From positions 2,161 to 66,160 of the forward strand of contig DIOL01000035.1 in assembly GCA_002423895.1 (NCBI GenBank): DNA of 64,000 nt, given 5' to 3'. The translations under genes were made by a program, and so were the position numbers. This DNA is from Bacteroidales bacterium UBA5515. GTDB taxonomy: Bacteria; Bacteroidota; Bacteroidia; Bacteroidales; P3. This document shows positions 8,731-33,445 of this stretch, piece after piece. How positions within the stretch are numbered: the first letter of the stretch is position 1; each line of letters begins with the position of its first letter. The notes below the pieces were generated by a model. That model searched no databases. It saw only the letters and a list, made by a program, of their open reading frames with translations, and had not been told where the DNA came from.

Positions 8731-11649
8731 ATGGAAATTCCAAAATCACTTATTGAGAAAATGAATAAAAATCAACTTGTAATCTTTGCAGGTGCAGGAT
8801 TGTCAATGAATGCAGGTCTTCCAAGTTGGATTGATTTAATTAATGGCATACTCGATGATTTAGGAGATAAAGAACCTAAAAAAGATAAGTACAAGGACGC
8901 ATTAAAGGATGAAATAATGACTCCTTTAGAAGTACTCAATAAAATTGAAATTCACAAGGAATTTGTTATTGAAGCGATAGATAAAATAATTAGAGGCTTT
9001 GATGATGTTAAGCCAAGTCGATTATTTAATTATATAGGAGAAATTTCAACAAAGATAATCACTACAAATTATGATTATATTTTAGAGTCCATTTATAAAG
9101 ATTTTGAAAAAGTTGTATATAATAATTCATTTAAAGTTTCTAAACTATCAAACTATGAAAAATATATTTTTAAAATTCATGGAGATATTCAAGAACCAGA
9201 TAAATGTATATTATTCTCTTCTCAATATGAAGAATTATATATTAAAAATGAGCAATCATCAATTTTTGAATTAAAAAAAATAATATCAGATAAATCAATA
9301 CTTTTTCTTGGTTTTAGTCTAAATGACCCATACATCAATTTTGTTTTTGATTTTGTAACTAAAATTTATGGTGGTTTCACCCCTGAACATTTTATAATTA
9401 CTACTGAAAAAGAAAATAAATGGCCAAATAGAATTACTCCAATAAAAATCAATACTTACTCTGAAATAGAATCTTTTTTATCAGAATTATCTAAAGAGAA
9501 AAATAATCAAGAAAATAAAGAAGAAACATTAGTGGCAAAACTAAATGATAATCATCATCATAATAATATTATTGATTTGACTGAATCTCTTGAATATGAT
9601 TTGCCACCAAACAACAAGTTTTGGGTTGGAAGAAGAAAAGAAATAGAAAATATCTCTGTTGATATATTTAAAGTGATTTTTATTACAGGTATTGGAGGTC
9701 AAGGTAAATCAGCACTCGCAGCATATTATGTAAAGAATTGTTTTGATGCCAAACTGTTTGAATATGCTGATTGGAGGGATTTCAAAGAGGAAACAAATAG
9801 ATTTCAGACAAAACTAATTTCTATAATTAAAAGAATTTCTAATAATCAAGTTACAGCAAATCAATTAGAATGTGTAAGAAACAATGAATTAGTTGATTTG
9901 TTTTTTAAGTGTTTATCTGATAAAAAAATAATATTTGTTTTTGACAATATTGACAGTTATATAGATTTGGAAACTTTTACACCAAGTGGAGGAATGAAGT
10001 ATTTTTTTGAACAAGCATTAGAAATAAATCATAACTCTAAATTTATCTTTACATGTAGACCATTTATTCGAGAAGCTAGTTCAAACTTTTATCAACTTAC
10101 TCTTTCAGGTTTGTCAGAAAAAGAAACTGAAGAAATTTTTTCATTATACAATATAAATATCTGTAAAGAACAATTAAAAGAATTAAGCAAAAAAGCATAT
10201 ACACTCACAAAAGGACATCCTTTATGGTTAAATCTTATAGCAGCTCAAGCATTAAGAGGTTTTGAAACAGTGAACAAATTTATTCAAAGTATTGAAGATA
10301 AAACTGATTTCAATGAAGAAGGATTTTCTTCAATACTTTCGGAAAAAATTTTAAATGAAGTATGGTACTCTCTCAATAATAAGCAACAAACATTACTTAG
10401 GGGAATTGCAGAAACTGTAAAGCCAGAAACACTCTCTAATTTAAAGAAAATAATGGAATCTGAACTTAATGTTAATCAACTTGATAAAGCATTTAAAGTT
10501 TTGAAGAATTTGAACTTAATTGAACTAAAATCATCTGATATAAGTGAAGATCAAATTGAATTACATCCTCTAGTAAAAGAATTTATATCTTTGAAATTTC
10601 CAAAAACTGAAAGAGCAAAATTCATCACGTTACTAGTCCAATATTATGATAGGTTTATTTATATATTGAAACCGCAACTTAGTTCTAATATGAGTTTATC
10701 TGATTTTCAAAATTGGACATCCAAAATAGAATTACAGATAAACAAAGGGGATTTTAAATCTGCTTTAGTAGCTTTAGAAGAAGTATCAGCATCAATTATA
10801 TCAGCAGGATTTTCTGAAGAATATTTAAGGGTTTCAGAGAGATTATTTAATTCTGTTGATTGGAAATTAGCAATTGGTAATGAGTATCCATATTTTGAAA
10901 CTCAATTTGATACACTTACACAAGTTATGACACAATATGGTAATTTCAACGATTGTGAATTATTATTAGAAAAATATTCTAAATTAATTAATGGGAAAAG
11001 TTCAAAATACTTATCTTATTGCAGTGGAAAATGTTATTTATATTGGTATCAAGAAAAATTCAATGAGGCTATTGAAATTGGAGAGTATGGTCTTTTTTTG
11101 ATTAATAATTCAGGTATTTCTGATAATTATTCACTTAGACACAATTTAGCATTAGCAAGAAGGGACTCTAAAATAGATAAAAATATAAAAGAAGCATTAT
11201 TGTATTTTCTTAAAGGGGAAAATTTAGAAAATATAATTAATAATGTGAATGTAGATTTAGGAGGTCATTTCTATGGAAATATTGGTAAGTGTTTAGAACT
11301 TCTTAATGATAAAGTAAATGCATTGACTTGTTATTATATATCGTTTTCCATATTATGTAACGAAGATAATAATAATTCGAAGTTAAATTTAGGCTATGCT
11401 GCATCTTGGATTTATAGCATACTTAAGGATACGAAAAATAAATTAGATTCGCTATACTTTTTAAAACTGAGTATTAACATTTGGGAACATTCTTCACCTC
11501 CTAGAGCAGATAAAATGAAGAAAGAATGGAAAAATTTCATTATTGATAAACAGACAAAACAAGAAATTGAAAAGATTCCTGATTGGAAGATAGCTAATTA
11601 CTGTAAGGAAAAATCAAAAACTTATATTGGTAGTGGTTTTGTAAAATAA
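8731..11649 (+). CDS. SIR2-like effector fused to a STAND/NB-ARC NTPase and a helical-repeat (TPR-like) sensor; Avs-like antiphage candidate
   Basis: N-terminal SIR2_2-type motifs FAGAGLSMNAGLPSW, TTNYD, KIHGD and LGFSLND (aa 15-215). P-loop GIGGQGKS at aa 320-326 (nt 9688-9708) and Walker B IIFVFDNID around aa 400. The C-terminal 450 aa or so are helical-repeat-like. Confidence 0.85.
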   Translation: MEIPKSLIEKMNKNQLVIFAGAGLSMNAGLPSWIDLINGILDDLGDKEPKKDKYKDALKDEIMTPLEVLNKIEIHKEFVIEAIDKIIRGFDDVKPSRLFNYIGEISTKIITTNYDYILESIYKDFEKVVYNNSFKVSKLSNYEKYIFKIHGDIQEPDKCILFSSQYEELYIKNEQSSIFELKKIISDKSILFLGFSLNDPYINFVFDFVTKIYGGFTPEHFIITTEKENKWPNRITPIKINTYSEIESFLSELSKEKNNQENKEETLVAKLNDNHHHNNIIDLTESLEYDLPPNNKFWVGRRKEIENISVDIFKVIFITGIGGQGKSALAAYYVKNCFDAKLFEYADWRDFKEETNRFQTKLISIIKRISNNQVTANQLECVRNNELVDLFFKCLSDKKIIFVFDNIDSYIDLETFTPSGGMKYFFEQALEINHNSKFIFTCRPFIREASSNFYQLTLSGLSEKETEEIFSLYNINICKEQLKELSKKAYTLTKGHPLWLNLIAAQALRGFETVNKFIQSIEDKTDFNEEGFSSILSEKILNEVWYSLNNKQQTLLRGIAETVKPETLSNLKKIMESELNVNQLDKAFKVLKNLNLIELKSSDISEDQIELHPLVKEFISLKFPKTERAKFITLLVQYYDRFIYILKPQLSSNMSLSDFQNWTSKIELQINKGDFKSALVALEEVSASIISAGFSEEYLRVSERLFNSVDWKLAIGNEYPYFETQFDTLTQVMTQYGNFNDCELLLEKYSKLINGKSSKYLSYCSGKCYLYWYQEKFNEAIEIGEYGLFLINNSGISDNYSLRHNLALARRDSKIDKNIKEALLYFLKGENLENIINNVNVDLGGHFYGNIGKCLELLNDKVNALTCYYISFSILCNEDNNNSKLNLGYAASWIYSILKDTKNKLDSLYFLKLSINIWEHSSPPRADKMKKEWKNFIIDKQTKQEIEKIPDWKIANYCKEKSKTYIGSGFVK

Positions 11650-11713: not shown

Positions 11714-13825
11714 TTACGAAATCTGAGAGAAATCAATTTGGGGTTTGGTTCTTTGGAAGTATTCTTTTAGTTTTTGATTTTGTGGAGTAATAAGCATTGG
11801 GTCTTGTTGCGCTATTTCAATTGCTGTGTTTCTTGCAGCTTTTAAAATAGGCTCATCTTTAACAATATTAGCTATCTTTAAATCTAATAAACCACTTTGC
11901 TTTGTTCCAGCAATATCGCCTGGACCTCGAAGGCGAAGGTCAATTTCTGAAATTTCAAATCCATCATTTGTTTCAACCATTGCTCCAAGTCTTTCCTTTG
12001 CTTCGGAAGATAGTTTGTAGCTACTCATTAAAATGCAATAAGACTTTTCTGCTCCTCTACCAACTCTGCCACGCAATTGATGCAATTGAGAAAGTCCGAA
12101 GCGTTCTGCATTTTCAATTATCATTACAGAAGCATTGGGAACATCAACTCCAACTTCAATTACTGTTGTTGAAACCATAATATGAGTTATGCCTTTTTTA
12201 AATCTATCCATCTCATATTCCTTATCCTGAGCTTTCATTTTGCCATGAACAATGCTTATTTGAAATTCTGGTAATGGAAATTCTCTAACTATGCTTTCGT
12301 AGCCATCCATCAGATCTTTAAGATCTAATTTTTCGGACTCTTTGATTAATGGGTAAACAACATAAATTTGTCTTCCTGCTTCAATCTCTTTTCGCATAAA
12401 TGCAAAAATTCTAAGACGGTCTTTGTCGTAGAAATGAGCTGTTTGAACTGGCTTTCTTCCTGGAGGTAACTCATCAATCACTGAAACATCCAAGTCTCCA
12501 TACACTGTCATTGCAAGAGTTCGAGGAATAGGAGTAGCTGTCATTACCAAAATATGTGGAGCTGTATGATTTTTTGTCCACATCTTGGCTCTTTGTTCAA
12601 CTCCAAAACGATGTTGCTCATCAATAACACATAACCCTAAATTGGAAAACTTAACCTTGTCTTCAATTAAAGCATGTGTGCCAATAATTATATCAATTTT
12701 TCCTTCTTCCAATTCAGGGAGAATAACATTTCTTTCTTTTTGTGTTGTGCTTCCAGTTAAAAGAGCAACTTCAAGAGGCATATCTCCCAAAAATTTCTTT
12801 ATTGAAACATAATGCTGCTGAGCCAATATTTCGGTTGGTGCCATAATGGTTGCCTGAAAACCATTATCTATTGCAATTAGCATGCTTAAAAGAGCAACCA
12901 GTGTTTTTCCACTTCCTACATCTCCTTGCAAAAGGCGATTCATTTGATGTCCTGTTCTTAAATCATTGCGTATTTCCTTAATAACTCTTTTTTGAGCATT
13001 TGTTAATGGGAAAGGTAAATAGTTATTGAAGAAATCATTAAAAGCATTGCCAACCGTTGAAAAAACAAATCCTTGTGACTTTTCAACTCTATTGGTTTTG
13101 AGAAGTTGATGTTCAAGTTGCATAAAGAATAGCTCTTCAAATTTCAGTCTTGCTTTTGCTTTTGAAAGTAATTCAGTTGATGAAGGGAAGTGTATTTGAA
13201 TTAAAGCTTCTTCAAGTGAGATTAAATGATACTTATCAATAATATACTTTGGTAAACTTTCTGGGATATATCCTTTAACTTGTCCAATTAAAGTTCGCAT
13301 CAGGTTGGAAATAGCCTTAGAGTTTAAGAAGGCATTTTTCATTTTTTCGGAAGTATTGTAGAGAGGGGAGAACTTTTGAGTCAGGTTTTCTTGTGAGGCA
13401 AGGTATGTTTCCAACGGTTCAATGTCGGGGTGAGCAAAATTATAGTTTCCTTTAAAAAGTGAAGGCTTTCCGAAAATCACATATTCTTTTCCTTGCTTAA
13501 TGCTTTCTTTAATCCATTTTATTCCTTTAAAGAATACCAATTCAACCTTTCCAGTTTGGTCAGCAAAATTAATAGAAAGTCTTGCTTTTGCACCAATTCC
13601 AATAATTTCCATTCCAATGACTTTTCCTCTAATTTGAATGAAAACTTCTTCTGATTGAATATCCTTTATTTGAACAAAATTACTTTTATCAACATAGCGA
13701 TAAGGATAATAGGATATGAGGTCACGGTAAGTTGTTATGCCAAGTTCTTTGTTAAGAACTTTTGCTTTCTTCTCACCAACTCCTTTTAGAAATTCAATCT
13801 TAGTATCTAAGAGATTAACCTGCAT
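11714..13825 (-). CDS. recG: ATP-dependent DNA helicase RecG
   Basis: Wedge-domain N-terminus, GDVGSGKT, DEQHRFGV, QLRGRVGRG. Length 703 aa. Confidence 0.95.
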   Translation of the reverse strand: MQVNLLDTKIEFLKGVGEKKAKVLNKELGITTYRDLISYYPYRYVDKSNFVQIKDIQSEEVFIQIRGKVIGMEIIGIGAKARLSINFADQTGKVELVFFKGIKWIKESIKQGKEYVIFGKPSLFKGNYNFAHPDIEPLETYLASQENLTQKFSPLYNTSEKMKNAFLNSKAISNLMRTLIGQVKGYIPESLPKYIIDKYHLISLEEALIQIHFPSSTELLSKAKARLKFEELFFMQLEHQLLKTNRVEKSQGFVFSTVGNAFNDFFNNYLPFPLTNAQKRVIKEIRNDLRTGHQMNRLLQGDVGSGKTLVALLSMLIAIDNGFQATIMAPTEILAQQHYVSIKKFLGDMPLEVALLTGSTTQKERNVILPELEEGKIDIIIGTHALIEDKVKFSNLGLCVIDEQHRFGVEQRAKMWTKNHTAPHILVMTATPIPRTLAMTVYGDLDVSVIDELPPGRKPVQTAHFYDKDRLRIFAFMRKEIEAGRQIYVVYPLIKESEKLDLKDLMDGYESIVREFPLPEFQISIVHGKMKAQDKEYEMDRFKKGITHIMVSTTVIEVGVDVPNASVMIIENAERFGLSQLHQLRGRVGRGAEKSYCILMSSYKLSSEAKERLGAMVETNDGFEISEIDLRLRGPGDIAGTKQSGLLDLKIANIVKDEPILKAARNTAIEIAQQDPMLITPQNQKLKEYFQRTKPQIDFSQIS

Positions 13826-22667: not shown

Positions 22668-24926
22668 ATGAAAAAATATAAAGGGACTTTCTTTTATTTG
22701 ATAATAACAAGCCTGTTTACTGCTCTTATTTTCTATATAATTTATATAGGAAAAGACCTTGAAGTAGGGCGTGAAATTATTAGAAATTTTTCAAAGAATA
22801 CCCCTTTTCAAGATTTCTCTAATTTTATTTCTAACAATCTTAAACATTCTGTTGGTCTATTAATCTTACAAATTATAGCAATAATTATAGTTGCAAGAGG
22901 AATAGGCTTTTTCTTTAGAAAAATGGGACAGCCAGTTGTTATTGGTGAAATACTTGCAGGTATTATTCTTGGTCCTTCTCTTTTGGGAACTTATTTTCCT
23001 GAATTTTCCAATTTTCTTTTTGCAAAGGATTCTCTTGGAGGGCTTCAAATACTTAGTCAAGTTGGACTTGTTTTATTTATGTTTGTTATTGGAATGGAGC
23101 TTAATTTAAAGGTACTTAAAAATACAGCCTACGAAGCAACAGTTATAAGTCATGCAAGTATTATTATTCCTTTTGCTTTAGGAATTGGATTGGCCTATTA
23201 TCTTTATCCTTCTTTTGCTCCTGAAAATATTCCTTTCTCTTCTTTCAGCCTTTTTATTGGAATTTCAATGAGTATAACTGCTTTTCCTGTTTTGGCGAGA
23301 ATTGTTCAGGAAAAAGGACTTCACAAAACCAAGATTGGAGCTTTGTCCCTAATATGTGCCGCAATAAACGATATAACTGCTTGGTGTTTGCTGGCAGTGA
23401 TTATTGCTGTTGTTAAGGCTGGCTCTTTTGCAAGTTCAATTTACACTATAGTTTTTGCAATAGCCTATGTTTTCTTAATGATTTCTGTAGTGCGTCCTTT
23501 CTTAAAGAAAATTGTTAGCTCATCCAAATCCGATATTTCACTAAATAAAACCTTAGTGGTTATTGTCTTTTTGGTATTGCTAATATCTTCTTTTATAACA
23601 GAAACAATAGGAATTCATGCTCTCTTTGGAGCTTTTATGGCAGGAACCATTATGCCTGAGAATATCCGTTTTAGAAAACTCTTTATTGAAAAAATTGAAG
23701 ATGTTGCCTTAGTGCTTTTCTTACCTATTTTCTTTGTTATAAGTGGATTGAAAACAGAAATTGGATTAATTGATAATTCTAATTTGTGGGAGCTAACAGG
23801 AATTATAATTGCTGTTGCCATTGCAGGTAAATTTATAGGAAGTGCTGCAGCTGCAAAGTTCGTTGGACAAAGCTGGAAAGACAGTTTAACATTAGGAACA
23901 CTAATGAACACTCGAGGCTTAATGGAAATTGTAGTATTGAATATTGGTTACGATTTGGGAGTGTTGAATGCAGAGATATTTGTAATGCTAATTCTTATGG
24001 CACTAACAACAACCTTTATGACAGGACTTTCATTAAGTGGAATTGAAAAGATATTTAAAACAAACAAAATAGATATTAAAGATTTAGAGTCTTCAAAAGA
24101 TAAAATTCTCCTCTTTTTCCGAAATGCTCAAACCAGCACATCGTTAGTAAGAATAGCCAACTCATTAACTAAGAAAACCAATTCCCAATCACTAATCACA
24201 GCCATACATATTGCTCCTTCCAATGGACTCTCGCAAATGAATACAGAGCAAATTGAAAAGGAAAGCTTTAAGCCAATAGTTAGAGAAGCAAATAACTTGG
24301 ATAGAAAGTTAATATCATTCTTTAAGGTTTCAAACAACTTTCAAACTGAAGTGGTGGAGTTTGCCAATCAAGGCAATTTCGACTTTTTGTTGATGGATAG
24401 CGAAGAATCCATATTCTACGGAACACTCTTGGGAAGAGTTTTGGGCTTTACAACCAAAATCATCAATCCCGAAAAACTAATAAACACAGTAAGAGGAAGA
24501 GAACCACTATTGGAAACCTCAATAATTGACCTTAATACAAGAGCAATTGAGAAAAAGACAAAAATGCCCGTTGGAATATTATTAGACAAAGAAATAAAGA
24601 AATTTGATAATATTCTTTTTATATATTTTACCAAAGAAGATGTATACTTAAATAAGTATTCCAAGAAATTTATTGATAACGAATACTCATCAATAACAAT
24701 CTTAGACTATATACCTAACGATAAATCATCCATAAAACAAAGCCTAAGTACTTATGAAGAAAATTATTTGGATAGTATTAACATAATAACCTATAAAGAT
24801 ATAAGCGAAAACCTGATATCATCACAAGATTTAATAATAGTTAGCTTTAAGAATTTCAATAAACTATTCCAACTAAAGAAAGATTGGTTAAATAGCATCC
24901 CTTCAGTACTTATTATCTCAATTTAG
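22668..24926 (+). CDS. CPA2-family cation:proton antiporter with a large cytoplasmic C-terminal domain
   Basis: Na+/H+ exchanger-type membrane domain with about 12 TM segments (GEILAGIILGPS...), followed by a roughly 300-aa soluble tail. Confidence 0.85.
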   Translation: MKKYKGTFFYLIITSLFTALIFYIIYIGKDLEVGREIIRNFSKNTPFQDFSNFISNNLKHSVGLLILQIIAIIIVARGIGFFFRKMGQPVVIGEILAGIILGPSLLGTYFPEFSNFLFAKDSLGGLQILSQVGLVLFMFVIGMELNLKVLKNTAYEATVISHASIIIPFALGIGLAYYLYPSFAPENIPFSSFSLFIGISMSITAFPVLARIVQEKGLHKTKIGALSLICAAINDITAWCLLAVIIAVVKAGSFASSIYTIVFAIAYVFLMISVVRPFLKKIVSSSKSDISLNKTLVVIVFLVLLISSFITETIGIHALFGAFMAGTIMPENIRFRKLFIEKIEDVALVLFLPIFFVISGLKTEIGLIDNSNLWELTGIIIAVAIAGKFIGSAAAAKFVGQSWKDSLTLGTLMNTRGLMEIVVLNIGYDLGVLNAEIFVMLILMALTTTFMTGLSLSGIEKIFKTNKIDIKDLESSKDKILLFFRNAQTSTSLVRIANSLTKKTNSQSLITAIHIAPSNGLSQMNTEQIEKESFKPIVREANNLDRKLISFFKVSNNFQTEVVEFANQGNFDFLLMDSEESIFYGTLLGRVLGFTTKIINPEKLINTVRGREPLLETSIIDLNTRAIEKKTKMPVGILLDKEIKKFDNILFIYFTKEDVYLNKYSKKFIDNEYSSITILDYIPNDKSSIKQSLSTYEENYLDSINIITYKDISENLISSQDLIIVSFKNFNKLFQLKKDWLNSIPSVLIISI

Positions 24927-25034
24927 GAAAAGATAGAAAGTAAAAATATCAGCCATTCTTAACTTTCTCATTTGCTTTGCAAATTTGGGGAAATAATTAA
25001 TGGTAAATTCAACATTAAATTCAAAATAATTTTG

Positions 25035-25042
25035 TATATTTG
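25035..25042 (+). promoter_or_regulatory. Orphan Bacteroidota -7 box (TAtaTTTG) pointing into array C
   Basis: Matches TAnnTTTG. No ORF lies between it and the separate P1 promoter at 25413. Confidence 0.4.
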
Positions 25043-25137
25043 CAAATATAAACCATTCATTAGGTTTATTTAGGACTATTTATCCTAAAGTCAATTTCTG
25101 GAAAACAAACTCCAATCCCTAAAAATATATCAAAAAA

Positions 25138-25220
25138 AAGATGCACATCTTTTATAGTGAAAGATGTGCATCTTTTGGTATGAAAGATGTGCATCTTTGG
25201 GGTAAAAAGTCTTCGTTTAA
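25138..25220. repeat. Phased palindrome array C: 3 units of AAGATG(CA/TG)CATCTT, period 23 bp, plus a terminal AAGTCTTCGTTT unit
   Basis: Dyad centres lie at about 25144.5, 25167.5 and 25190.5. Unit 1 is inverted relative to units 2 and 3. Confidence 0.85.
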
Positions 25221-25387
25221 TAAGTTTTTTATAAGGAGTTTGTAGATTTATTCGCCGTTTACGCAGAATTATTCCCTATTTAATTTTAAATAATAAGGAT
25301 TATTTACCAAGAAAGTCTTTTTGATTCTCAAAAAAGACAACCATATTCCATTTAAGAAAAGAAATAAAAATAAATATAAGTTAAGAA

Positions 25388-25472
25388 TTAACACTATTTA
25401 AAAATATTTCCCTACCTTTGAACATTAATAATAAATATAAGTTATTAATGAATAAGTATAGAATTGAAAATC
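25388..25472 (+). repeat. Promoter/leader module P1 (direct repeat of P2)
   Basis: About 85 bp that aligns to 30060-30146. Shared sequence runs ACTATTT..AAAATATTT..CT..TTTGA...AATAATAAATATAAGTTATTAATGAATAAG..GATTG.AAATC. It includes a TAccTTTG -7 box at 25413-25420. Confidence 0.8.
25413..25420 (+). promoter_or_regulatory. -7 box TAccTTTG of the island cassette operon (inside P1)
   Basis: TAnnTTTG consensus, 138 nt upstream of the ATG at 25558. Confidence 0.5.
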
Positions 25473-25485
25473 TTAATAATAATAT

Positions 25486-25539
25486 AGTGCGTGATTACTT
25501 ATCGACTTTGTCGCTTTGCAAAGCAAAGAAATCCCAAAC
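25486..25539 (+). repeat. Inverted repeat R, left copy
   Basis: AGTGCGTGATTACTTATCGACTTTGTCGCTTTGCAAAGCAAAGAAATCCCAAAC matches the reverse complement of 29785-29840 at roughly 85 percent by eye. The core TTTGCAMAGCAAGAAATC also occurs at 26390-26407. Confidence 0.8.
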
Positions 25540-25557
25540 TAAGGAAAATTACCTATC

Positions 25558-26283
25558 ATGAGAAAATATTTAATTTTATTATTGTCATGCTTTTTAATTA
25601 CAGCATGCATTAAATCAAAAGTAGAATTAGAAGATTTAAATACTATTTGTTTTAAAATATCTGAAAGAGCATGTGATAATGCATATAGATATAAAAAATA
25701 TCAAGACAAAGAAGCTCTTGCATTATCTTTTAAACAATGTGATTCTATCATTTATGGCGGATGTGATGTTAATGCAATAGGATCAGCAATACATATAAAG
25801 TTTAATCTATATTTTTGGACTAAACAATACAAACAAGCATTAGATGAAATAGAAAAATTAAGGACCAGAGATGATATTTTTTGGGATGCTAATTTCCCCA
25901 GCTCAACTTATTATAAATTATTAATACAAACATTCTGGGCTAATGATAGAGGAGAAATAGAAGAACGCAACCATTATATAAAACAAAATATTGCTTTTAT
26001 GGATGCTTGCTTTAATGCTTATAATGAGGTTAAATACGCAGATATAAAAAAAAATCTAAAAGAAGTAGATTTAGCAGACGCAGAAATTCATCATGTTAAA
26101 AAAGACTATATGAGTTTAGTTACATATTATTCAATAAAATCATTGCTATATAAAAAAGAAGATCTTTTGGAAGAAATAAAAAATATAAAAGTAGAAAAAC
26201 CTTTAGAGGAATTTTATTCTCTTGAAGATTATATAAAGAAACTAGACACAAATTTGTATTGGAAAGAGGAAAATTTATTTTAA
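25558..26283 (+). CDS. Helical lipoprotein, unknown function (island cassette 1)
   Basis: Lipobox LITAC. The ORF is followed by the conserved inter-cassette repeat X. Confidence 0.6.
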   Translation: MRKYLILLLSCFLITACIKSKVELEDLNTICFKISERACDNAYRYKKYQDKEALALSFKQCDSIIYGGCDVNAIGSAIHIKFNLYFWTKQYKQALDEIEKLRTRDDIFWDANFPSSTYYKLLIQTFWANDRGEIEERNHYIKQNIAFMDACFNAYNEVKYADIKKNLKEVDLADAEIHHVKKDYMSLVTYYSIKSLLYKKEDLLEEIKNIKVEKPLEEFYSLEDYIKKLDTNLYWKEENLF

Positions 26284-26296
26284 GTAGGGTAGTTGG

Positions 26297-26380
26297 TAAT
26301 GTATCAGATTGGGAGCCTTATTTAGTGAAGAGTTAAAAACTAAAAGTTAAAAGTGATAGGAAAACAATGGATTACTAATC
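26297..26380 (+). repeat. Inter-cassette repeat X, copy 1
   Basis: TAATGTATCAGATTGGGAGCCTTATTTAGTGAAGAGTTAAAAACTAAAAGT...GGATTACTAATC, starting 14 nt after the stop of cassette 1. Confidence 0.8.
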
Positions 26381-26488
26381 GGTTTACCGTTTGCACAGCA
26401 AGAAATCATAATAATAAAGAAGTACTGGATTATAAATCGCGCACGACAAAAGTATCAACGTTTTTGCAACTGTCTTGAATAACAGCCT

Positions 26489-27016
26489 ATGAGAACAATA
26501 TTTTTTACATTATTAGTTTTAAGCTTAAATGTTTTCGGTCAATCTGATAAAAAAGATACATTAATAAATTATTGGTTACCTGATTTTGATACATATTCAT
26601 TTGATACCATTATAAATCAGACAAATTATCGAATGAAAACGTATTGTTTAAATGATAGTGCAGTTTATAATGAAACCTTTACTGTAGAGGGAAGTAAATA
26701 TAATAACCTAATTGAATATAGTGTAGCACATAATTTTGCGACTGATTTTACGATTAAAACAGCTAATAATGAGATTAAGTTACATTTAATAAAGGAAAAT
26801 TTTAAGGATAGCTTATCATCTGATTTCTTTAAGATTTGTCACATGTGGAAAAATGAGTTTTCACATGTAGAGAATGGACAGTTAATTTTTCGTGCAACAT
26901 TTGCGAAACCAGATACTGATTATCAATTTGCAATTTTATATTTAATAACAGACAAAGGTGATATTAGAATATTAAAAGTAGAAGATGAATCATTCTATGG
27001 ATTGGGAAATGAATAA
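26489..27016 (+). CDS. Secreted small protein, unknown function (island cassette 2)
   Basis: Signal peptide MRTIFFTLLVLSLNVFGQ. Flanked by Y-type repeats. Confidence 0.55.
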   Translation: MRTIFFTLLVLSLNVFGQSDKKDTLINYWLPDFDTYSFDTIINQTNYRMKTYCLNDSAVYNETFTVEGSKYNNLIEYSVAHNFATDFTIKTANNEIKLHLIKENFKDSLSSDFFKICHMWKNEFSHVENGQLIFRATFAKPDTDYQFAILYLITDKGDIRILKVEDESFYGLGNE

Positions 27017-27081
27017 ATTTCCCGCACTACAGAAGTACTGGATTCTAAATCCAGCACTACGGAACAATAAAATATAAGATT

Positions 27082-27627
27082 ATGAAAAAAATAGCAATAA
27101 TAATATTTTCAATCATTGGTATTTCAGGTTGTTATATGATTTACCCACTTGAGAACGAATCTCGAAATGTTTTTGATTTAGATGATTATACTGAGACAAA
27201 ATACGAAGTATCGTTGCAATTTGGTATAAATAGTTGGATGACTCCTGACGAGAATTATGGTAAATACTCTGATACACTAGATAGATTAAAATATATATTT
27301 AGTATACCTTGTCCAGAACTTCCTTTAGTAAAGCTAAATTCATTTACTTTTACAAGGCAAAAAGACAAGGATACAATCCCAACCATATTTTATGTATGGG
27401 GAGGAAAGGGGGAGACATTATTGATTGATAGCTTGCCTGTTAGTTTTGATAATAAAATAAAAGAAAAGATTCAATCTTTTTCAATTATTGCTGAGAGTAA
27501 TGCTCCATTTCGTGATATAGATAGTGTTTATATAAATTACAATATACAAGTAGGGAAGGATACAATTATAAAAAGTATTTTTTATAAACGAACTCTACGA
27601 AATGGATCAAAGTGGTTAATGTGGTAA
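27082..27627 (+). CDS. Lipoprotein, unknown function (island cassette 3)
   Basis: Lipobox GISGC. Followed by the second copy of repeat X. Confidence 0.55.
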   Translation: MKKIAIIIFSIIGISGCYMIYPLENESRNVFDLDDYTETKYEVSLQFGINSWMTPDENYGKYSDTLDRLKYIFSIPCPELPLVKLNSFTFTRQKDKDTIPTIFYVWGGKGETLLIDSLPVSFDNKIKEKIQSFSIIAESNAPFRDIDSVYINYNIQVGKDTIIKSIFYKRTLRNGSKWLMW

Positions 27628-27632
27628 TTGAT

Positions 27633-27717
27633 TAATGCATCAGAAAAGGAGCCTTATTTAGTGAAGAGTTAAAAACTAAAAGTGAAAAGTGATGGAAAAA
27701 CAACGGATTACAAATCC
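27633..27717 (+). repeat. Inter-cassette repeat X, copy 2
   Basis: TAATGCATCAGAAAAGGAGCCTTATTTAGTGAAGAGTTAAAAACTAAAAGT...GGATTACAAATCC, starting 6 nt after the stop of cassette 3. Confidence 0.8.
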
Positions 27718-27737
27718 TGCAGATGAAAATAGTACTG

Positions 27738-29225
27738 CTATAATAGTTTTTTAATCGCATTTATTGTTTCTATTGTTTTTAGTTTAAGTTCTGGATCTAC
27801 ATTAGCTTGTTCAATCATCATTAGACAACTATCAATCTTCTCTATTGTATCAGCATTTGATAATTTAATCTTCTCGAGTTCAGTACTATTAACAACACTA
27901 ATAGAATTAGTATTCAAATTAATCAACTCTGGAAGTATTTTTAACAATTTCATAGCTTTATTCATTTCAATCAAGGGATTAGTCTTAACTAAAGCATTGA
28001 ATAATGTGAGAGTATTATCTCTATCTTTAAACCTATAATGAACAGAACACTCTCTTAACTGCATATTGTTAATATCATCACTTACTGCTAATTCTTTTAA
28101 CTCTCTTTCAATTTTAACTAATAAATCTGTCAAGTTTTTATCAGTTGAAGATATTAAAATTGAATATATATTTTGTTTCCAGAATGATTTAGATTGTTCA
28201 ATATCTGTATATCCATAAATGTGTTTAAATCCCTCATACACTATGATATTAATACGCCTTAGATTTAATTGTTTTTCAAAGTAATACTCAGAACTTAAAT
28301 ATGCTCTTATTGCACTTGCTAAATCCAAATATATGAAATGGATATGAACACCTAAATAAATTGATTTAACAATAGTTTGAAGTCTTCCCTCAAAAGTTTC
28401 TCCTAACTTAAATTTATCTTGCACAATTTTAGTCTTTTTACAATTTGAGACAATGCTGTCTAAATTATTACTATATAAAGTTATTTGCGCACCAAGTTCA
28501 TTGAATAATTTATTGTTTCCATCAGGGAAATAATTAATCTTTTCCCTTACATCAATATTATAATTATCAGTTGAGTAAATAAGAGGTATTTGAAACTTTA
28601 AGATATACTTATGCAAGAAAGGCAATATGTCTTTTATTATCTTTAAAAAGGCATTTATTCTATTAGTTTCAGTATCTTCTCCTATTTGTATTAAAAAATC
28701 GTAAACTTTTTGAGGATATAAATCATAGTGAATGGAAAGATTTCGAGTATCTTTATCTGTTGATAGTGCATAACTATTCTCAAATTCTTTTGCTTGTTGT
28801 TCTATTTTATTAATATCCGTTAATAATTCTGAATCGTTTATTTCTTTAGCTAATATTTTAAATTTAGCCCATATTGCATTATCCTTATCTTTACCAAAAC
28901 CAAATAAATATTTATAGCCTTCTAACGTTATTACATTTATATATTTTAGATTAAAACGTTTTTCAGGAACTAACATTGTTCTAAAATTTGCCCTTAAAAA
29001 TGTACTTAAATCAAGATCCATAAGCAAAGAAAATACATAAAGTCTTATAAATATTTTCCACAATTTAAATTCTTTTATACATTTATACTCTTTTTCATCT
29101 ATATCTTCTAAGCTTTCTAATGAACTAACACAACTACACAATATAGGTACATATAATGAGAAGTTATTCCCCATATTTTCATATAATCTATGAATTGTTT
29201 CTTCGGATGCTGGTTTCTGTGTCAT
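27738..29225 (-). CDS. Internally duplicated protein with two Rx4H motifs (candidate double-HEPN RNase)
   Basis: Two homologous halves, aa 68-180 and aa 298-410. Each has NL+xINxIxxEGxK...W and ends in an Rx4H-Y motif: TRNLSIHY (R161-H166, nt 28728-28745) and LRECSVHY (R391-H396, nt 28038-28055). Confidence 0.55.
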   Translation of the reverse strand: MTQKPASEETIHRLYENMGNNFSLYVPILCSCVSSLESLEDIDEKEYKCIKEFKLWKIFIRLYVFSLLMDLDLSTFLRANFRTMLVPEKRFNLKYINVITLEGYKYLFGFGKDKDNAIWAKFKILAKEINDSELLTDINKIEQQAKEFENSYALSTDKDTRNLSIHYDLYPQKVYDFLIQIGEDTETNRINAFLKIIKDILPFLHKYILKFQIPLIYSTDNYNIDVREKINYFPDGNNKLFNELGAQITLYSNNLDSIVSNCKKTKIVQDKFKLGETFEGRLQTIVKSIYLGVHIHFIYLDLASAIRAYLSSEYYFEKQLNLRRINIIVYEGFKHIYGYTDIEQSKSFWKQNIYSILISSTDKNLTDLLVKIERELKELAVSDDINNMQLRECSVHYRFKDRDNTLTLFNALVKTNPLIEMNKAMKLLKILPELINLNTNSISVVNSTELEKIKLSNADTIEKIDSCLMMIEQANVDPELKLKTIETINAIKKLL

Positions 29226-29413
29226 TGTAATTATATTGCTTTAATAATTAATTCTATTGAGATAATATTCTATCCTATTTATTGTTTAACCTATTTTCTA
29301 TTCGGTTTTTTATAAGACTTTATAAGGGAGAAAATTGATATGCTTTTTCAATTTTATAGTAAGTGTGGTTTATAAAAGATAATATTAAATGAGAAAAATT
29401 AATTATCTTTTTG

Positions 29414-29421
29414 CAAAGATA
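29414..29421 (-). promoter_or_regulatory. -7 box (TATCTTTG on the minus strand) upstream of the double-Rx4H gene
   Basis: CAAAGATA on the plus strand. It implies a leader of about 180 nt. Confidence 0.4.
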
Positions 29422-29529
29422 AAAATAATAATGATATAATGATCACAAATCTAACATCGTATTCTGCCTCTTTCTATTTTTAACCATCTAAAACAAGCTT
29501 AAAATATGATACCTTATGATATTAAATTT

Positions 29530-29760
29530 AGACTTCTTGTTTTTGAAACGAGACTTCTTCTTTTTACTTTTAGACTTCTTGTTTGTAGTCAATAAGTCTG
29601 ACTTTTGTTATCAAAAAGTCTGACTTATTGGGTTGAAAAGTCTGACTTTTTATATTGAAAAGACTGACTTTTTAGGTAAGAAAGACTGACTTTTTGGGTA
29701 TAATAACTTCTTCTAAAAGTATAATAACTTCTTCTAAATGTAAAATTAGGAAGTTATTGT
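29530..29760. repeat. Phased array D: about 10 units in four sub-families, period 21-22 bp
   Basis: AGACTTCTTGTTT at 29530, 29551 and 29572. AAGTCTGACTT at 29594, 29616 and 29638. AAGACTGACTT at 29660 and 29682. ATAATAACTTCTTCTAAA at 29700 and 29721, with an inverted partner GGAAGTTATT at 29749. Confidence 0.85.
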
Positions 29761-29784
29761 TTGAAATAAACTAATCGTTTTTTT

Positions 29785-29840
29785 GTCGTGTGAGATTTCT
29801 TGCTGTGCAAAGCAATAAAGTCGATAATTAATCATGCACT
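29785..29840 (-). repeat. Inverted repeat R, right copy
   Basis: The reverse complement reads AGTGCATGATTAATTATCGACTTTATTGCTTTGCACAGCAAGAAATCTCACACGAC. Confidence 0.8.
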
Positions 29841-29858
29841 TCTTAATAAAAGCAATAA

Positions 29859-29952
29859 AAAGTTAACCAAGTTAATCAAGTTAATCAAAAATGAAAAGTA
29901 TTTCAGAATAGAAAATACAATACTTTTTAAAACAAGTTAACTTGGTTAACTT
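29859..29952. repeat. Nested palindrome between R(right) and P2
   Basis: Perfect 16-bp arms: AAGTTAACCAAGTTAA at 29860-29875 and TTAACTTGGTTAACTT at 29937-29952. They enclose a 9-bp inner inverted repeat, AAAAGTATT at 29894 and AATACTTTT at 29919. AAGTTAA is also repeated three times with a 9-bp period. Confidence 0.8.
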
Positions 29953-30059
29953 CATTAACTATTTTAAACAAGATTTAAAATGCAGTAATGTTTCAATCTA
30001 ATTTTCCCCCTGCAATTATCTTTTCTTCAATACCTATATAGCTAATATTTTATTGATTA

Positions 30060-30146
30060 ATTAATACTATTTTGAAAATATTTACTTATCTTTGACGAGC
30101 AATAATAAATATAAAGTTATTAATGAATAAGCATTGGATTGCAAAT
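30060..30146 (+). repeat. Promoter/leader module P2 (direct repeat of P1), upstream of the MFS-M20 operon
   Basis: See P1. The -7 box TAtcTTTG lies at 30086-30093. Confidence 0.8.
30086..30093 (+). promoter_or_regulatory. -7 box TAtcTTTG of the MFS-M20 operon (inside P2)
   Basis: TAnnTTTG consensus. Confidence 0.5.
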
Positions 30147-30251
30147 CACGTACAACGTAAAAGCAATGAAATTATTCACGACGTAAATCTAAATTTATTA
30201 AAATAACGATATAGAAAGATACAATAAATAAACAATTAAAAACTAATAATT

Positions 30252-31700
30252 ATGACAAACACAGTTCAGTACAAAGGGAATGACAAACTATTGTTTGGCA
30301 TTATTCTGGGAGTGTTAGCTTTTTGGCTATTTGCTCAAACCACATTAAATATCAATGTGGATATGGCGAAAGATTTAGGTATGGATACTTCGATGATGAA
30401 TATTGCCGTATCTATTACATCGCTGTTTTCTGGAATTTTTATTGTAGTATTTGGTGGGTTGGCTGATAAAATTGGTCGACTTAAAATGATTCGACTTGGT
30501 TTTTATTTCAGCATCATAGGTTCGCTATTGGTAGGGTTAACGCCTGTTGGTGGAGCATCAAGTCCAGTTTTGATTTTGGGAAGAATTTTTCAAGGACTTT
30601 CAGGTGCAGCCATTATGCCGTCAAGTTTAGCACTTGTTAAAGCATACTGGGAAGGAAAAGAACGCCAACGTGCCATTAGTCTTTGGTCAATGGGTTCATG
30701 GGGAGGTTCTGGTTTTGCAGCATTGTTTGGAGGTTTAATGGTTGGAATTGGTTGGAGATATATCTTTTTTACTGCAGTAATTATTTCAGTAATTGGACTA
30801 CTTTTGATTAAAGGGACACCTGAAAGTAAAGCAGAACCAACTGGAAATAAAAAAAGGGATTTTGCAGGTATTATTATTTTTATGTTAGCTATGATTGCAT
30901 TACAAGTTATAGTAACTAAAGGTTCTCAAATTGGATTCGCAAGTCCACTTGGTATTGTTCTAATTGCAGCAACAATTATTTTTGCATTTTTATTTTATAA
31001 AATTGAAAAAGGTAAAGACGGTGCATTTATCGACTTTAAACTGTTTAAAAATATGACTTTTACTGGTGCAACTATATCAAATTTTATGCTGAACGGAACT
31101 GCAGGAATATTGATTGTTTCGCTTGCTTTGTTGCAAATTGGTGGTAATCTTTCAGCACAAGAAGCAGGAATACTAACACTGGGCTATGCTATTTCAATTG
31201 TGGCATTTATTCGTGTAGGTGAAAAGCTGTTGCAACGTTTTGGTTCACGCAAACCAATGATTTGGGGCTCACTAATTGTCAGTGTGGCTATTATTCTGCT
31301 TATGTTCACCAATGTAATGACAGACACTTACAAAATTTTGGCTATGGTGGCTTATACGCTTTTTGGTATTGGCTTGGCTTTCTATGCCACTCCTTCTACT
31401 GATGCAGCACTTTCCAACTTGCCAGCATCACAAGCAGGTGCAGGTGCAGGTATTTATAAAATGGCTTCATCGCTTGGAGCAGCTTTTGGAGTAGCTATCC
31501 CTGCAGGTATATTTACTTCATTACGTGTTGGCGAACATATAACATGGCTTGAAGGTGTTATCACTTTTGTGGGAAGACAAGATAATCTGTCTGTACGTGA
31601 AGGAGCAACCATTGCTTTGGGTGTAAATCTGCTAATGGTTATATTTGCAATTATCATCATTATGATTACTATCCCAAAAACATCGGGAAAAGGTAAATAA
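30252..31700 (+). CDS. MFS transporter, 14-TMS DHA2 (EmrB/QacA-like) type
   Basis: About 14 hydrophobic segments and the GGLADKIGR motif between TM2 and TM3. Confidence 0.85.
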   Translation: MTNTVQYKGNDKLLFGIILGVLAFWLFAQTTLNINVDMAKDLGMDTSMMNIAVSITSLFSGIFIVVFGGLADKIGRLKMIRLGFYFSIIGSLLVGLTPVGGASSPVLILGRIFQGLSGAAIMPSSLALVKAYWEGKERQRAISLWSMGSWGGSGFAALFGGLMVGIGWRYIFFTAVIISVIGLLLIKGTPESKAEPTGNKKRDFAGIIIFMLAMIALQVIVTKGSQIGFASPLGIVLIAATIIFAFLFYKIEKGKDGAFIDFKLFKNMTFTGATISNFMLNGTAGILIVSLALLQIGGNLSAQEAGILTLGYAISIVAFIRVGEKLLQRFGSRKPMIWGSLIVSVAIILLMFTNVMTDTYKILAMVAYTLFGIGLAFYATPSTDAALSNLPASQAGAGAGIYKMASSLGAAFGVAIPAGIFTSLRVGEHITWLEGVITFVGRQDNLSVREGATIALGVNLLMVIFAIIIIMITIPKTSGKGK

Positions 31701-31736
31701 TAAATCACAATTCATTAATTAAAAAGTCGAGAAATT

Positions 31737-32900
31737 ATGAACGATAAATTATTATCAGAAGTTTCTAAACTTCAACCAGAGATGAAAGAATGGATGGATT
31801 TTATGCACCAAAATCCAGAGTTGAATATGGATACCCAAAATACAGCCAAATTTATTGCCGAAAAACTTAAATTGTGGGGTTATGATGTTGTTGAAGGTGT
31901 AGGAGGATCTGGAATTGTGGCATCATTAACCGTTGGGAAAGGAACAAAATCCATAGGACTACGAGCAGACTTTGATGCTTTGCCTATATTTGAAGACAAT
32001 GATTTACCTTATAAGAGCAAGGTAGAAGGTTGGTCGCATCTTTGCGGCCATGATGCACACGCAACAATGCTACTTGGCGCAGCTAAATACATGGCAGATA
32101 ACAAAAACTTTGATGGAACTATACGTTTAATTTTCCAACCAGGAGAAGAAACAATGGAAGGAGCTCCTGCAATGGTTAAAGATGGTCTTTTTGAACGTTT
32201 CCCAATGGATGCAGTTTATGGAATGCATAATATGCCAGGACTGCCTTTAGGGAAATTCTTTTTCCGAGAAGGAGAAACAATGGCGGCAGTTGATAACTGG
32301 GAGATAGAACTCACAGGAAAAGGCAGCCACGGTTCTATGCCTGAATTAAGTATAGACCCTCTGGTTTGTGGAGCGTCGTTGGTAATGGCACTTCAAACTA
32401 TTGTGAGTAGAAATGTATCACCATGGAAAAACTCAGTGGTAAACGTTGGCGCATTCCAATCTGGAATTGCAGGAAACGCTGTACCACAAAAGGCAATATT
32501 AGGATTAAGTATAAGAAATATGGAACCAGAGCTTCGCATAATGGTACTTGATAAAATCCGCATAATAACAAAAGCACAAGCCGAAGCTTTTAATTGTGGT
32601 TATGAAATTCGAGAAGGAGTTGCAGGTGCTGTATTGGTAAATACACCTGAAAACACTCAATGGGCATACAAAGTAGCACAAGATACCTTTGGCGAAGATA
32701 ATGCTGAGTACGGCATGCATCCATATATGGGCAGCGAAGATTTTGCTTTTATGCTTCAAAAGAAAGCAGGAACCTACTGCATGATTGGCAACGGTGATAC
32801 TTTTATGGTACACCATCCAAAATATGTTTTCAATCAAGATTTGCTGAGCCGTGGAGCAACCTATTGGGTAGCCCTTATAGAAAACTACTTAAAAAATTAA
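31737..32900 (+). CDS. M20D-family amidohydrolase (N-acyl-amino-acid / hippurate hydrolase-like)
   Basis: RADFDALP, HLCGHDAH, FQPGEE and SEDFAF motifs. Confidence 0.85.
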   Translation: MNDKLLSEVSKLQPEMKEWMDFMHQNPELNMDTQNTAKFIAEKLKLWGYDVVEGVGGSGIVASLTVGKGTKSIGLRADFDALPIFEDNDLPYKSKVEGWSHLCGHDAHATMLLGAAKYMADNKNFDGTIRLIFQPGEETMEGAPAMVKDGLFERFPMDAVYGMHNMPGLPLGKFFFREGETMAAVDNWEIELTGKGSHGSMPELSIDPLVCGASLVMALQTIVSRNVSPWKNSVVNVGAFQSGIAGNAVPQKAILGLSIRNMEPELRIMVLDKIRIITKAQAEAFNCGYEIREGVAGAVLVNTPENTQWAYKVAQDTFGEDNAEYGMHPYMGSEDFAFMLQKKAGTYCMIGNGDTFMVHHPKYVFNQDLLSRGATYWVALIENYLKN

Positions 32901-32952
32901 ATTAATATTGAATAGGTGTTGGATTATTTATCCTAATTATAGAAACATACTA

Positions 32953-33384
32953 ATGAAATATTTATATGTAATAATATTCTTTTTCCCATTTTTATGCAAC
33001 GCGCAAGATAAAGATTCAGTTACTCTAATTTTAAAGAACAATCAAAAAATAGATTATATACTTAATCCCTTTGTAAATACAATAGGATATGATAATGCTA
33101 AAACTACAATAAATGGAGATACGCTGATATTCAAAACATCATTCTTACTTGACGATACTATACTTTTTGATAATGGAACATTGGGATATAATTTTAGAAA
33201 AAATGTTCAGCCTAAAGAACGTGTGGGAAAAACTATATATATAAATCCATTACCATTTATTAGTAAAATTATTAAAGTTGAAATTAGGGATAATGATAAG
33301 GAGTATATTTACTATTTTAGGCATAAGAGAAAAAAAGTGTACACTTTCTATAAATTAGAAATAAGTAATAGTATTTCAGAATAG
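32953..33384 (+). CDS. Small secreted hypothetical protein
   Basis: The signal peptide MKYLYVIIFFFPFLCNAQ starts at the ATG at 32953. The track start is a TTG at 32908. Confidence 0.5.
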   Translation: MKYLYVIIFFFPFLCNAQDKDSVTLILKNNQKIDYILNPFVNTIGYDNAKTTINGDTLIFKTSFLLDDTILFDNGTLGYNFRKNVQPKERVGKTIYINPLPFISKIIKVEIRDNDKEYIYYFRHKRKKVYTFYKLEISNSISE

Positions 33385-33445
33385 ATTTTCGTTGTGTGGG
33401 ATTATGTATTTCAATATGAGATAAGAAAATGATAAAATATTTCTT

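Follow-up and report, generated by a model that had tools for sequence, protein, structure and literature searches.

A probable mosaic of REP-headed gene cassettes with a putative portable promoter between the antiporter and trkH genes of a Bacteroidales bacterium

In Bacteroidales bacterium UBA5515, two direct repeats named P1 and P2 flank a 4.7-kb segment of DNA that a preliminary description took for a site-specifically integrated island. The window analyzed here comprises the 64,000 nt from position 2,161 to 66,160 of contig DIOL01000035.1 (assembly GCA_002423895.1). On the best reading P1 and P2 are independent members of a scattered module, in which a promoter is joined to a repetitive extragenic palindromic (REP) unit, and not halves of a duplicated target. 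The repeats form a family linked to REP-associated tyrosine transposase (RAYT) genes. Its units are located 5' of genes and share their strand, the cargo varies from strain to strain, and the breakpoints between strains fall at unit edges. We conclude that the stretch from ~25.0 to ~33.4 kb, between a conserved antiporter gene and trkH, is probably a mosaic recombination hot spot. Its cassettes would be headed by units, and P would serve as a portable platform that supplies a promoter and a start codon.

P1 (25388-25472) and P2 (30060-30146) are true direct repeats, as first described, and their alignment spans ~85 nt. Two ungapped blocks, 25397-25440 versus 30071-30114 (82% identity) and 25439-25472 versus 30114-30147 (88%), are parted by a 1-nt indel. 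Because of this indel P2 escapes a search with the 30-mer leader of P1, which at ≤3 mismatches matches only itself in the window (chance expectation 0). There are two full copies of P in the 64 kb. Each joins a candidate Bacteroidetes -7 promoter to a REP unit of ~70-100 nt, which is composed in order of TAATGAATAAG, a hairpin (GGATTGAAAATCC), TAATAATAAAGA, a second hairpin (GTGCGGGA-N7-TCCCGCAC) and GACGG. The -7 box ascribed to each repeat is present in both as a Bacteroidetes-type TAnnTTTG sequence, TACCTTTG at 25413-25420 in P1 and TATCTTTG at 30087-30094 in P2. The dyad ascribed to each is intact in P2 save its final base (GGATTGCAAATCa) and degenerate in P1 (GAATTGAAAATCt). The P1 unit reads AAGTTATTAATGAATAAG, and its hairpin 1 is degenerate (GAATTGAAAATC, 25461-25472).

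Public metagenomes were scanned for the exact pattern of the P core, TAATGAATAANNATNGRATTGNAAATC, and 16 contigs were recovered. Their consensus is ...AATATTTCCCTACCTTTGAAC...AAATAAAAAGTTAG in the promoter part and TAATGAATAAGTATCGGATTGAAAATCC-TAATAATAAAGA-CGTGCGGGAGTACAAATCCCGCACGACGG in the unit part. Among 16 unit copies 91% of positions (alignment cells) are paired in the two hairpins, and GACGG, which is CGTC on the opposite strand, is kept. On four contigs (L060, L061, L064 and L065) the unit begins right at the stop codon of a decayed open reading frame (ORF), and in the last three an inverted unit copy lies on the other side of that ORF. Homologs of the decayed ORF belong to PF01797 (Y1_Tnp) and bear the JGI name 'REP element-mobilizing transposase RayT'; a 161-aa homolog possesses the HUH (NHLHAIV) and YIHNN motifs. 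This identity came from the homolog search, as a direct Pfam search did not recognize the RAYT fragments. L069 carries an intact, more distant RAYT gene followed on its 3' side by the two-hairpin layout (GGATTGAAAATCC ... GTTGGGATTACAAATCCCAAC-GACGG), whose stems have changed yet are still complementary. Since the unit follows RAYT genes and their relics, the terminal REP unit of a RAYT (IS200-like Y1 transposase) element makes up the 3' two-thirds of P. Two hallmarks of REP/RAYT systems are thereby seen: short palindromic units with a conserved terminal tag and, in relatives only (the relics of L061, L064 and L065), a Y1 gene with inverted flanking repeats. The RAYT gene or relics flanked by CGTC-tagged hairpins are located at 6040-6320 in L061, 4170-4436 in L064, 1283-1560 in L065 and 10-566 in L069. 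RAYT fragments also occur in the hot spot itself in L044, L047 and L053.

The window was searched with a profile of the unit using nhmmer. Four significant matches were obtained in the 64 kb, all in the 25-33 kb region, on the + strand and 5' of a gene, namely g1, g2, g3 and the major facilitator superfamily (MFS) gene (Table 1). Weaker remnants are found at 27704-27720 and before a 143-aa gene at 32901-32943. The dyad motif is clustered in the same variable region and confined to it. A further unit, inverted, sits 5' of the minus-strand gene for a 495-aa protein and in the orientation of that gene, so the 495-aa gene also obeys the rule that a unit lies upstream of cargo. The repeats are not unique to the two ends of the 4.7-kb segment; more members of the family exist within and beyond it.

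Individual units have diverged in different ways. Hairpin 2 of the P1 unit has an enlarged loop between stems at 25487-25494 and 25532-25539 and forms the left arm of a 41-nt inverted repeat R (25486-25526/29800-29840). R is hairpin 2 with a palindromic loop insertion of ~38 nt, a variant that is also found in L064 and L063. In the g2 unit the loop of hairpin 1 is expanded (GGATT...AAATC), TAATAATAAAG follows and hairpin 2 is decayed. The palindrome of the g3 unit has been preserved through change on both sides, as judged by pair counts. A 3' motif shared by cassettes, TAATGTATCAGATTTGGAG, comes after the stop codons of their genes, at 26297 and 27633 in the window and also in L044, L060, L063 and L066. 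Besides R, the 22-nt array D of the preliminary description is present, as is an 84-nt repeat.

In an alignment of seven loci, the stretch that opens at 25019 (ATTCAAAATAATTT...) and closes with the P1 unit (~25545) stands out as a single discrete ~0.5-kb module whose ends are precise. ATTCAAAATAATTT is the exact point at which homology begins with three non-orthologous loci (L054, L066 and L068), and module copies at unrelated loci diverge within a few bases past ...CGCACGACGG. The module follows a gene for a 618-aa transporter in L054 and lies between trmD and a tetratricopeptide repeat gene in L068. In L066 it is near rpoC/DUF3467, and downstream of it come two small genes of the lipoprotein-like kind, a unit doublet without a RAYT and then glnN. 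The copies in L054 and L068 are solo, with no co-directional gene downstream. Neither terminal inverted repeats nor a target duplication nor a conserved flank is evident at the unrelated module sites. Because L053, L054, L066 and L068 belong to one assembly and share a coverage of ~10-12x, one population holds at least four module loci. Extragenic copies occupy at least four loci in one assembly, and all copies in the window lie inside 8 kb. The P1 promoter segment recurs in conserved form ahead of unrelated genes in L053-L059, L063, L066 and L068, and the same promoter segment therefore stands before non-homologous genes. Viral contigs were scanned for the unit and the 3' motif, with only one chance match inside a gene (L070).

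The left part of the module contains a candidate -7 box, TATATTTG, at 25035-25042, a hairpin-rich conserved segment of ~100 nt and three 23-nt palindromic repeats (AAAGATGTGCATCTTT, 25137-25209; TRF). The conserved segment (within 25050-25210, + strand) has three predicted hairpins, is at least 90% conserved and is also present in L054, L066, L068, L047 and L059. It lies downstream of the TATATTTG box and ahead of the three 23-nt palindromes, which are terminator-like, and it could be a multi-copy small RNA. The segment folds well, and its consensus fold is without covariation or compensatory changes. For the leader and the module, Rfam gave no match at gathering thresholds in the whole window and none at E ≤ 5 over 24900-30300.

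The region was then compared among related strains, all of which are metagenome contigs. The flanking genes are dapF, that of a 752-aa cation/H+ antiporter, and trkH/trkA, and they point to a Bacteroidales lineage that is uncultured. The closest named antiporters come from metagenome-assembled genomes, and that of Dysgonomonas reaches just ~61%. The GC content is 30.2% in the window, 25.9% in 25000-30250 and 35.8% in the stretch encoding the MFS transporter and an M20 amidohydrolase. The segment between P1 and P2 is inserted, strain-specific, low-GC DNA, and in this respect the preliminary description holds. Contigs with a 97-98% identical antiporter have the left flank in common up to ~25288-25305 and diverge completely after it. 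The cargo of L042 comprises genes for DUF4352 and an IS1595 transposase together with a g3 homolog that is truncated. In L044/L045 a RAYT fragment is accompanied by genes for a DUF1016/YhcG nuclease, an exported protein of 235 aa and Imm8, after which come a fragmented MFS gene, M20 and trkH. In L047, czcD and fur lie on the opposite strand, and there are also REP doublets and one RAYT fragment. In L057, whose antiporter flank has 89-93% nucleotide identity, antiporter and P are followed by 3.7 kb of other genes, with a porin-like gene and a LuxR-type response regulator as cargo, that lead straight into trkH; MFS-M20 is absent. Since one strain is without MFS-M20, the variable region extends over ~25.3-33.4 kb and MFS-M20 is itself cargo.

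The breakpoints were located relative to the units. Homology between the window and L057 resumes at 33439, and homology with L044 resumes at 30114, which is exactly the unit start (AAGTTAnTAATGAATAAG). In L044 the unit half alone precedes the MFS gene, behind other cassettes. L044 and L063 have a 1386-nt block in common (97.4% identity) that begins where one unit starts (14191) and extends to hairpin 1 of the unit after it (15575), and the neighbours of this block differ on both sides. Breakpoints at unit edges fit recombination within units and independent insertion of discrete elements alike and do not tell the two apart. All retrieved contigs with the exact MFS, 495-aa or g2 protein of the window are collinear with it. 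For the MFS and 495-aa proteins this holds for 18/18 retrieved loci, g2 when looked up exactly returned only the arrangement of the window, and this arrangement is reproduced on at least nine independently assembled contigs from 8 samples. Breaks in Logan contigs at 27654 were considered as structural variation and rejected, as a 36-nt exact repeat explains them. In L044/L045 (15670-17070) the MFS gene is split into three ORFs of 131, 216 and 127 aa and is a pseudogene, and M20 is intact. Downstream of the shared left flank, L042 has a GC-richer, apparently structured non-coding stretch (12840-13000) before the DUF4352 gene that might be a leader RNA.

Site-specific integration of a single 4.7-kb element in the MFS leader, as originally proposed, would make P1 the attL and P2 the attR left by a tyrosine or serine recombinase encoded elsewhere. 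Direct repeats do flank low-GC foreign DNA. The window encodes neither an integrase nor a transposase nor a RAYT, judging by Pfam scans of ORFs ≥110 aa not otherwise covered, by the Pfam marks precomputed for called genes and by a tblastn search that used a RAYT as query, and the absence of a local recombinase from the island and its surroundings would fit action in trans. However, P is multi-copy at unrelated loci, extra units lie inside the island, MFS-M20 is variable and missing from L057, and the MFS gene of L044 has only a unit half and other cassettes before it. A duplicated 85-bp target with 12-18% divergence would also be atypical of a recent event. An empty site, with one P directly before the MFS gene, was found in none of the relatives. 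The segment is not present or absent among strains as one block; the cargo between antiporter and trkH differs in each relative, and each is a different mosaic. The preliminary description had itself named repeated P-like modules before unrelated genes as the pattern that would speak against it, and this pattern is found on the 16 metagenome contigs. Since P-like modules are a repeated promoter unit before unrelated genes and no empty site was found among the relatives, the attL/attR reading fails, and we regard it as very unlikely. Direct repeats around foreign DNA that lacks a nearby recombinase can be members of a scattered family and need not be att sites.

P2 might also have arisen as a segmental duplication of P1 within this strain, which would suit the presence of only two full copies in the window. 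Such a local event is hardly credible, given that the module is present in other strains and at other loci and that a P-type unit with a different upstream history already precedes the MFS gene in L044. The arms of R raise a different alternative. They are 88% complementary and bracket oppositely oriented genes just past a fixed promoter, as they would if the 4.3-kb segment between them were invertible and phase-variable, switching P1 between g1-g3 and the 495-aa gene. The collinearity of the 18 retrieved loci led us to reject inversion, the odds of which appear negligible. The arms amount to two variants of the REP unit, an invertase is absent, and inversion would leave ~570 nt of repeat array between P1 and the 495-aa gene.

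Besides a promoter, P may provide a start codon. An ATG in an A-rich context within the unit opens a short upstream ORF (uORF) with the sequence MNKYRIENPNNK(D/E)VREYKSRTTE.... The stop codon of the P1 uORF overlaps the start codon of g1 (ATGA), and the same overlap is found before the 235-aa gene of L044/L063. The P2 uORF has 27 codons (30123-30206). In L053, L055 and L056 the uORF is fused in frame to the downstream protein. Thus ~12 independent units with a co-directional downstream gene include two independent ATGA overlaps and three in-frame fusions, and in ~7 others the uORF stops 26-60 nt ahead of the gene. The downstream genes mostly encode signal-peptide, lipoprotein or membrane proteins. 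In L055 (369-940) the start codon and first ~23 codons of the unit are fused to a glutathione-peroxidase-like ORF (...YRGKVILIVNTASKCG), where the unit stands in place of the native N-terminus. Translation initiation in Bacteroidales is not Shine-Dalgarno-based. P would be a portable platform in which a -7 promoter and a structured leader are joined to an AUG. The short ORF begun at the AUG would be translationally coupled to the cargo by ending on its start codon or would be fused to it in frame. That P1 and P2 drive the genes after them, as the preliminary description held, is plausible for a promoter with its leader. Judged from sequence, a transcript from P1 would cover g1-g2-g3, cistrons that are separated by REP hairpins, and one from P2 would cover MFS-M20.

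In the favored explanation each cassette would be headed on its 5' side by an intact or decayed terminal REP unit of a lineage-specific RAYT element, and P1 and P2 would be the two units that also bear a Bacteroidetes-type promoter. A RAYT acting in trans may have seeded the units, after which cassettes would be gained, lost and swapped by recombination within or at them. Homologous exchange between units, RAYT in trans and an unseen tyrosine recombinase are the candidates for cassette movement. We favor homology-driven exchange with the DNA of related strains as the simplest route.

Transposition of the cassettes by RAYT would have segments bounded by same-strand REP hairpins cut and pasted in single-stranded form, as in IS200/IS605, so that the array grows beside a unit. 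Units and cargo are always on the same strand, the ends of the composite module are precise, with neither terminal inverted repeats nor a target duplication at any of three unrelated sites, and RAYT fragments reside in the same hot spot in L044, L047 and L053. Against this, a conserved target sequence in the left flank was not seen, the RAYT copies near arrays are all fragments, and no cassette was seen in two independent contexts. We know of no demonstration that RAYT mobilizes passenger genes. Cassette transposition by RAYT is therefore considered rather unlikely. The same low probability applies to its extension, in which the REP unit would be the recombination site of a cassette-capture system served by RAYT in trans and P would be analogous to Pc, attI and ORF-11 of integrons. 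P would then provide the promoter, an insertion site beside the hairpins and a coupling uORF. Each unit-headed cassette inserted as a single strand would lengthen an array of small genes for exported or immunity-like proteins.

Several observations weigh against the mosaic hot spot with a portable P. The strict -33/-7 promoter pattern is found at neither P1 nor P2. The unit hairpins are kept mainly by sequence identity, with compensatory changes at 2 pairs only, and the shuffle control for hairpin pairing is weak. An intact RAYT was observed neither in the window nor at the orthologous loci, which have only fragments, and the REP copy number per genome is modest, unlike that of classical REPs. 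As the compared strains are metagenome contigs throughout, chimeric structures are possible. None of the arrays seen shares a cassette with a clearly independent array, and because of this the mobility of cassettes is inferred from mosaicism alone.

The cargo genes bear on a further alternative. In an integron-like array, or one like the recombinase-associated acquired interbacterial defense (rAID) systems, the dyads would be core sites of a XerD-like recombinase encoded elsewhere, in the form of 9-7-9 palindromes such as CGTGCGGGA-N7-TCCCGCACG, and P1 would act as Pc plus attI; we hold this joint reading to be unlikely. Short, low-GC, co-directional genes for exported proteins with conserved intergenic motifs are consistent with it, as is the Imm8 immunity-family gene in the sister array of L044. 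Such arrays together with a recombinase define rAID systems (10.1101/471110; PMC12247911), and the coupling of the uORF recalls ORF-11 of attI1 (PMC8876359). However, no tyrosine recombinase adjoins any array seen, the repeats are demonstrably RAYT element ends, the units lie 5' of genes where attC sites lie 3', the GTTRRRY core is absent, and the window cassettes match no immunity family.

Pfam and further family searches gave no convincing family match for g1-g3; g1 has no known domain and g2 matches DUF4738 weakly. By tblastn against all fetched loci, g1-g3 matched only the g3 fragment in L042, which is 77% identical and lies beside an IS1595. The best GTDB species-level homologs of the MFS protein are from Dysgonomonadaceae (80-86% identity), and the DNA upstream of them is unrelated and without P; P is also missing from the other homologs recovered there. 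The MFS-M20 pair is conserved across many Bacteroidota and adjacent in about half of the retrieved loci, and none of the retrieved Bacteroidota MFS/M20 loci has an antiporter or trkH match. The 495-aa protein is a member of an orphan family, of which 211 cluster representatives were recovered at E ≤ 1e-3. In its two Rx4H motifs R161-x4-H166 and H396 are without variation, and R391 shows ~90% conservation. The AlphaFold model is all-helical and confident (pLDDT 92.5). No match to the 495-aa protein was found in Pfam, NCBIfam, PADLOC or PDB sequences, and no significant structural neighbor in PDB or BFVD. The reasonable guess that it is a two-HEPN RNase comes from the two conserved Rx4H motifs only. 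The 495-aa protein is matched twice by short relatives (~200-290 aa), which suggests an internal duplication in the family.

Table 1. Features of the variable region, in window coordinates
Feature	Position	Strand	Evidence or remark
Left part of ~0.5-kb composite module	25019..25305	+	alignment, TRF
P1 promoter part, box TACCTTTG	25383..25438	+	segment conserved before unrelated genes in relatives
P1 REP unit	25439..25545	+	nhmmer 25439-25503, E = 4.5e-12
uORF of P1, 37 codons (MNKYRIENLNNN...)	25448..25561	+	starts inside unit
g1	25558..26283	+	241-aa predicted lipoprotein
84-nt repeat, copy 1	26297..26380	+	opens with cassette 3' motif TAATGTATCAGATTGGGAG
REP unit before g2	26366..26450	+	nhmmer 26403-26450, E = 1.4e-7
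g2	26489..27016	+	175-aa exported protein
REP hairpin-2 unit before g3 (CTGGATTCTAAATCCAG)	27026..27065	+	nhmmer 27026-27065, E = 0.003
g3	27082..27627	+	181-aa predicted lipoprotein
84-nt repeat, copy 2 (27633-27716), then hairpin 1 (GGATTACAAATCC, 27705-27717)	27633..27720	+	end of co-directional g1-g3 run
495-aa protein gene	27738..29225	-	orphan family
Array D, 21-22 nt period	29522..29746		upstream of 495-aa gene
Inverted REP unit	29786..29850	-	long-loop hairpin 2, then CACGAC tag; right arm of R
P2 promoter part, box TATCTTTG	30060..30110	+	sequence
P2 REP unit	30111..30184	+	nhmmer 30111-30184 (before MFS), E = 4.7e-8
MFS (DHA2-type) + M20 amidohydrolase operon	30252..32900	+	GC 35.8%, variable cargo
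Decayed half REP unit (TTGGATTATTTATCCTAATTATAG)	32901..32943	+	weak nhmmer, E = 1; before 143-aa gene
143-aa exported-protein gene	32953-33384		follows decayed half unit
Half inverted REP (CGTTGTGTGGGATT)	33390..33403	-	sequence reading only; right edge of variable region

Between the 495-aa gene and P2 lie two further repeat structures. Array D is iteron-like and has three repeat types, with 3 copies of AGACTTCTT, 5 copies of AAGTCTGACTTTT and 2 copies of GTATAATAACTTCTTCTAAA; its 22-nt array occupies 29582-29746. A nested palindrome of 9-nt AAGTTAATC repeats is located at 29860-29960. Elsewhere in the window, a gene at 8731-11649 (+ strand) between a hydrolase gene and recG encodes a 972-aa protein with SIR2_2 and NB-ARC domains that resembles a STAND/Avs-type defense protein. 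As the hydrolase gene and recG are just ~60 nt apart in L042/L043, the 972-aa gene looks like a second strain-specific insertion.

If the favored explanation is true, the repeat of a domesticated transposase has been turned into a portable promoter, leader and start codon that marks every cassette boundary. It would give Bacteroidales a testable route for switching on horizontally acquired genes and would link REP/RAYT biology to gene-cassette arrays. As in REP/RAYT systems (REPtrons; PMC3733652), short imperfect palindromes in inverted orientation flank an IS200-like Y1 gene (PF01797), non-autonomous copies are scattered in intergenic DNA, and the hairpin carries a CGTC tag on the complementary strand (CCGTCGTGCGGGA...). 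Unlike in these systems, the unit is a ~70-nt composite of two hairpins and a linker in which loop insertions are possible. The copies are few, clustered and 5' of genes on the coding strand rather than 3', and many units are fused to a promoter and start codon. CGTC-tagged REPs have been reported to lack a dedicated transposase (Di Nocera et al. 2013, PMC3733652); the RAYT flanked by CGTC-tagged repeats is a counter-example to this statement. Putative mobile promoters (PMC3575422) resemble P as near-identical promoter-leader segments before non-homologous genes within and between genomes. They differ in that the vehicle of P is identifiable as the right end of a RAYT element, which supplies a start codon and uORF too.

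A comparable case may be that of Neisseria, where CGTC-type repeats are clustered near surface-protein genes in dRS3/NIME (Neisseria intergenic mosaic element) arrays, and minimal mobile elements place strain-differing cassettes at a fixed site between conserved genes, with exchange presumably by homologous recombination. The Neisseria arrays belong to an unrelated phylum, are unrelated in sequence and have no promoter/uORF module. The dRS3 repeat is CGTC-1 (PMC3733652). Integrons (PMC8876359) likewise have a fixed promoter, mostly promoterless cassettes with imperfect palindromes between them, and a short platform ORF translationally coupled to the first cassette (ORF-11), a coupling that the P1 uORF may share. 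Unlike integrons, the arrays described here have no IntI and no GTTRRRY core, and their repeats are 5' of the cassettes. With rAID-1 (Ross et al. 2019, 10.1101/471110; PMC12247911) they have in common a Bacteroidales host, conserved intergenic repeats, at least two co-directional short low-GC genes (g1-g3, of 241, 175 and 181 aa) and, in L044, a polymorphic-toxin immunity family (Imm8). Unlike in rAID-1, the defining XerD-like recombinase is absent from every array seen, and the gene upstream is that of an antiporter; the repeats originate from a RAYT element, and the cargo, which lacks an immunity-family match in the window, includes a transporter operon and a cytoplasmic 495-aa protein. If cassette capture by RAYT were nevertheless to prove true, it would represent a second, mechanistically distinct 'integron' in Bacteroidales and could bear on how rAID arrays are assembled.

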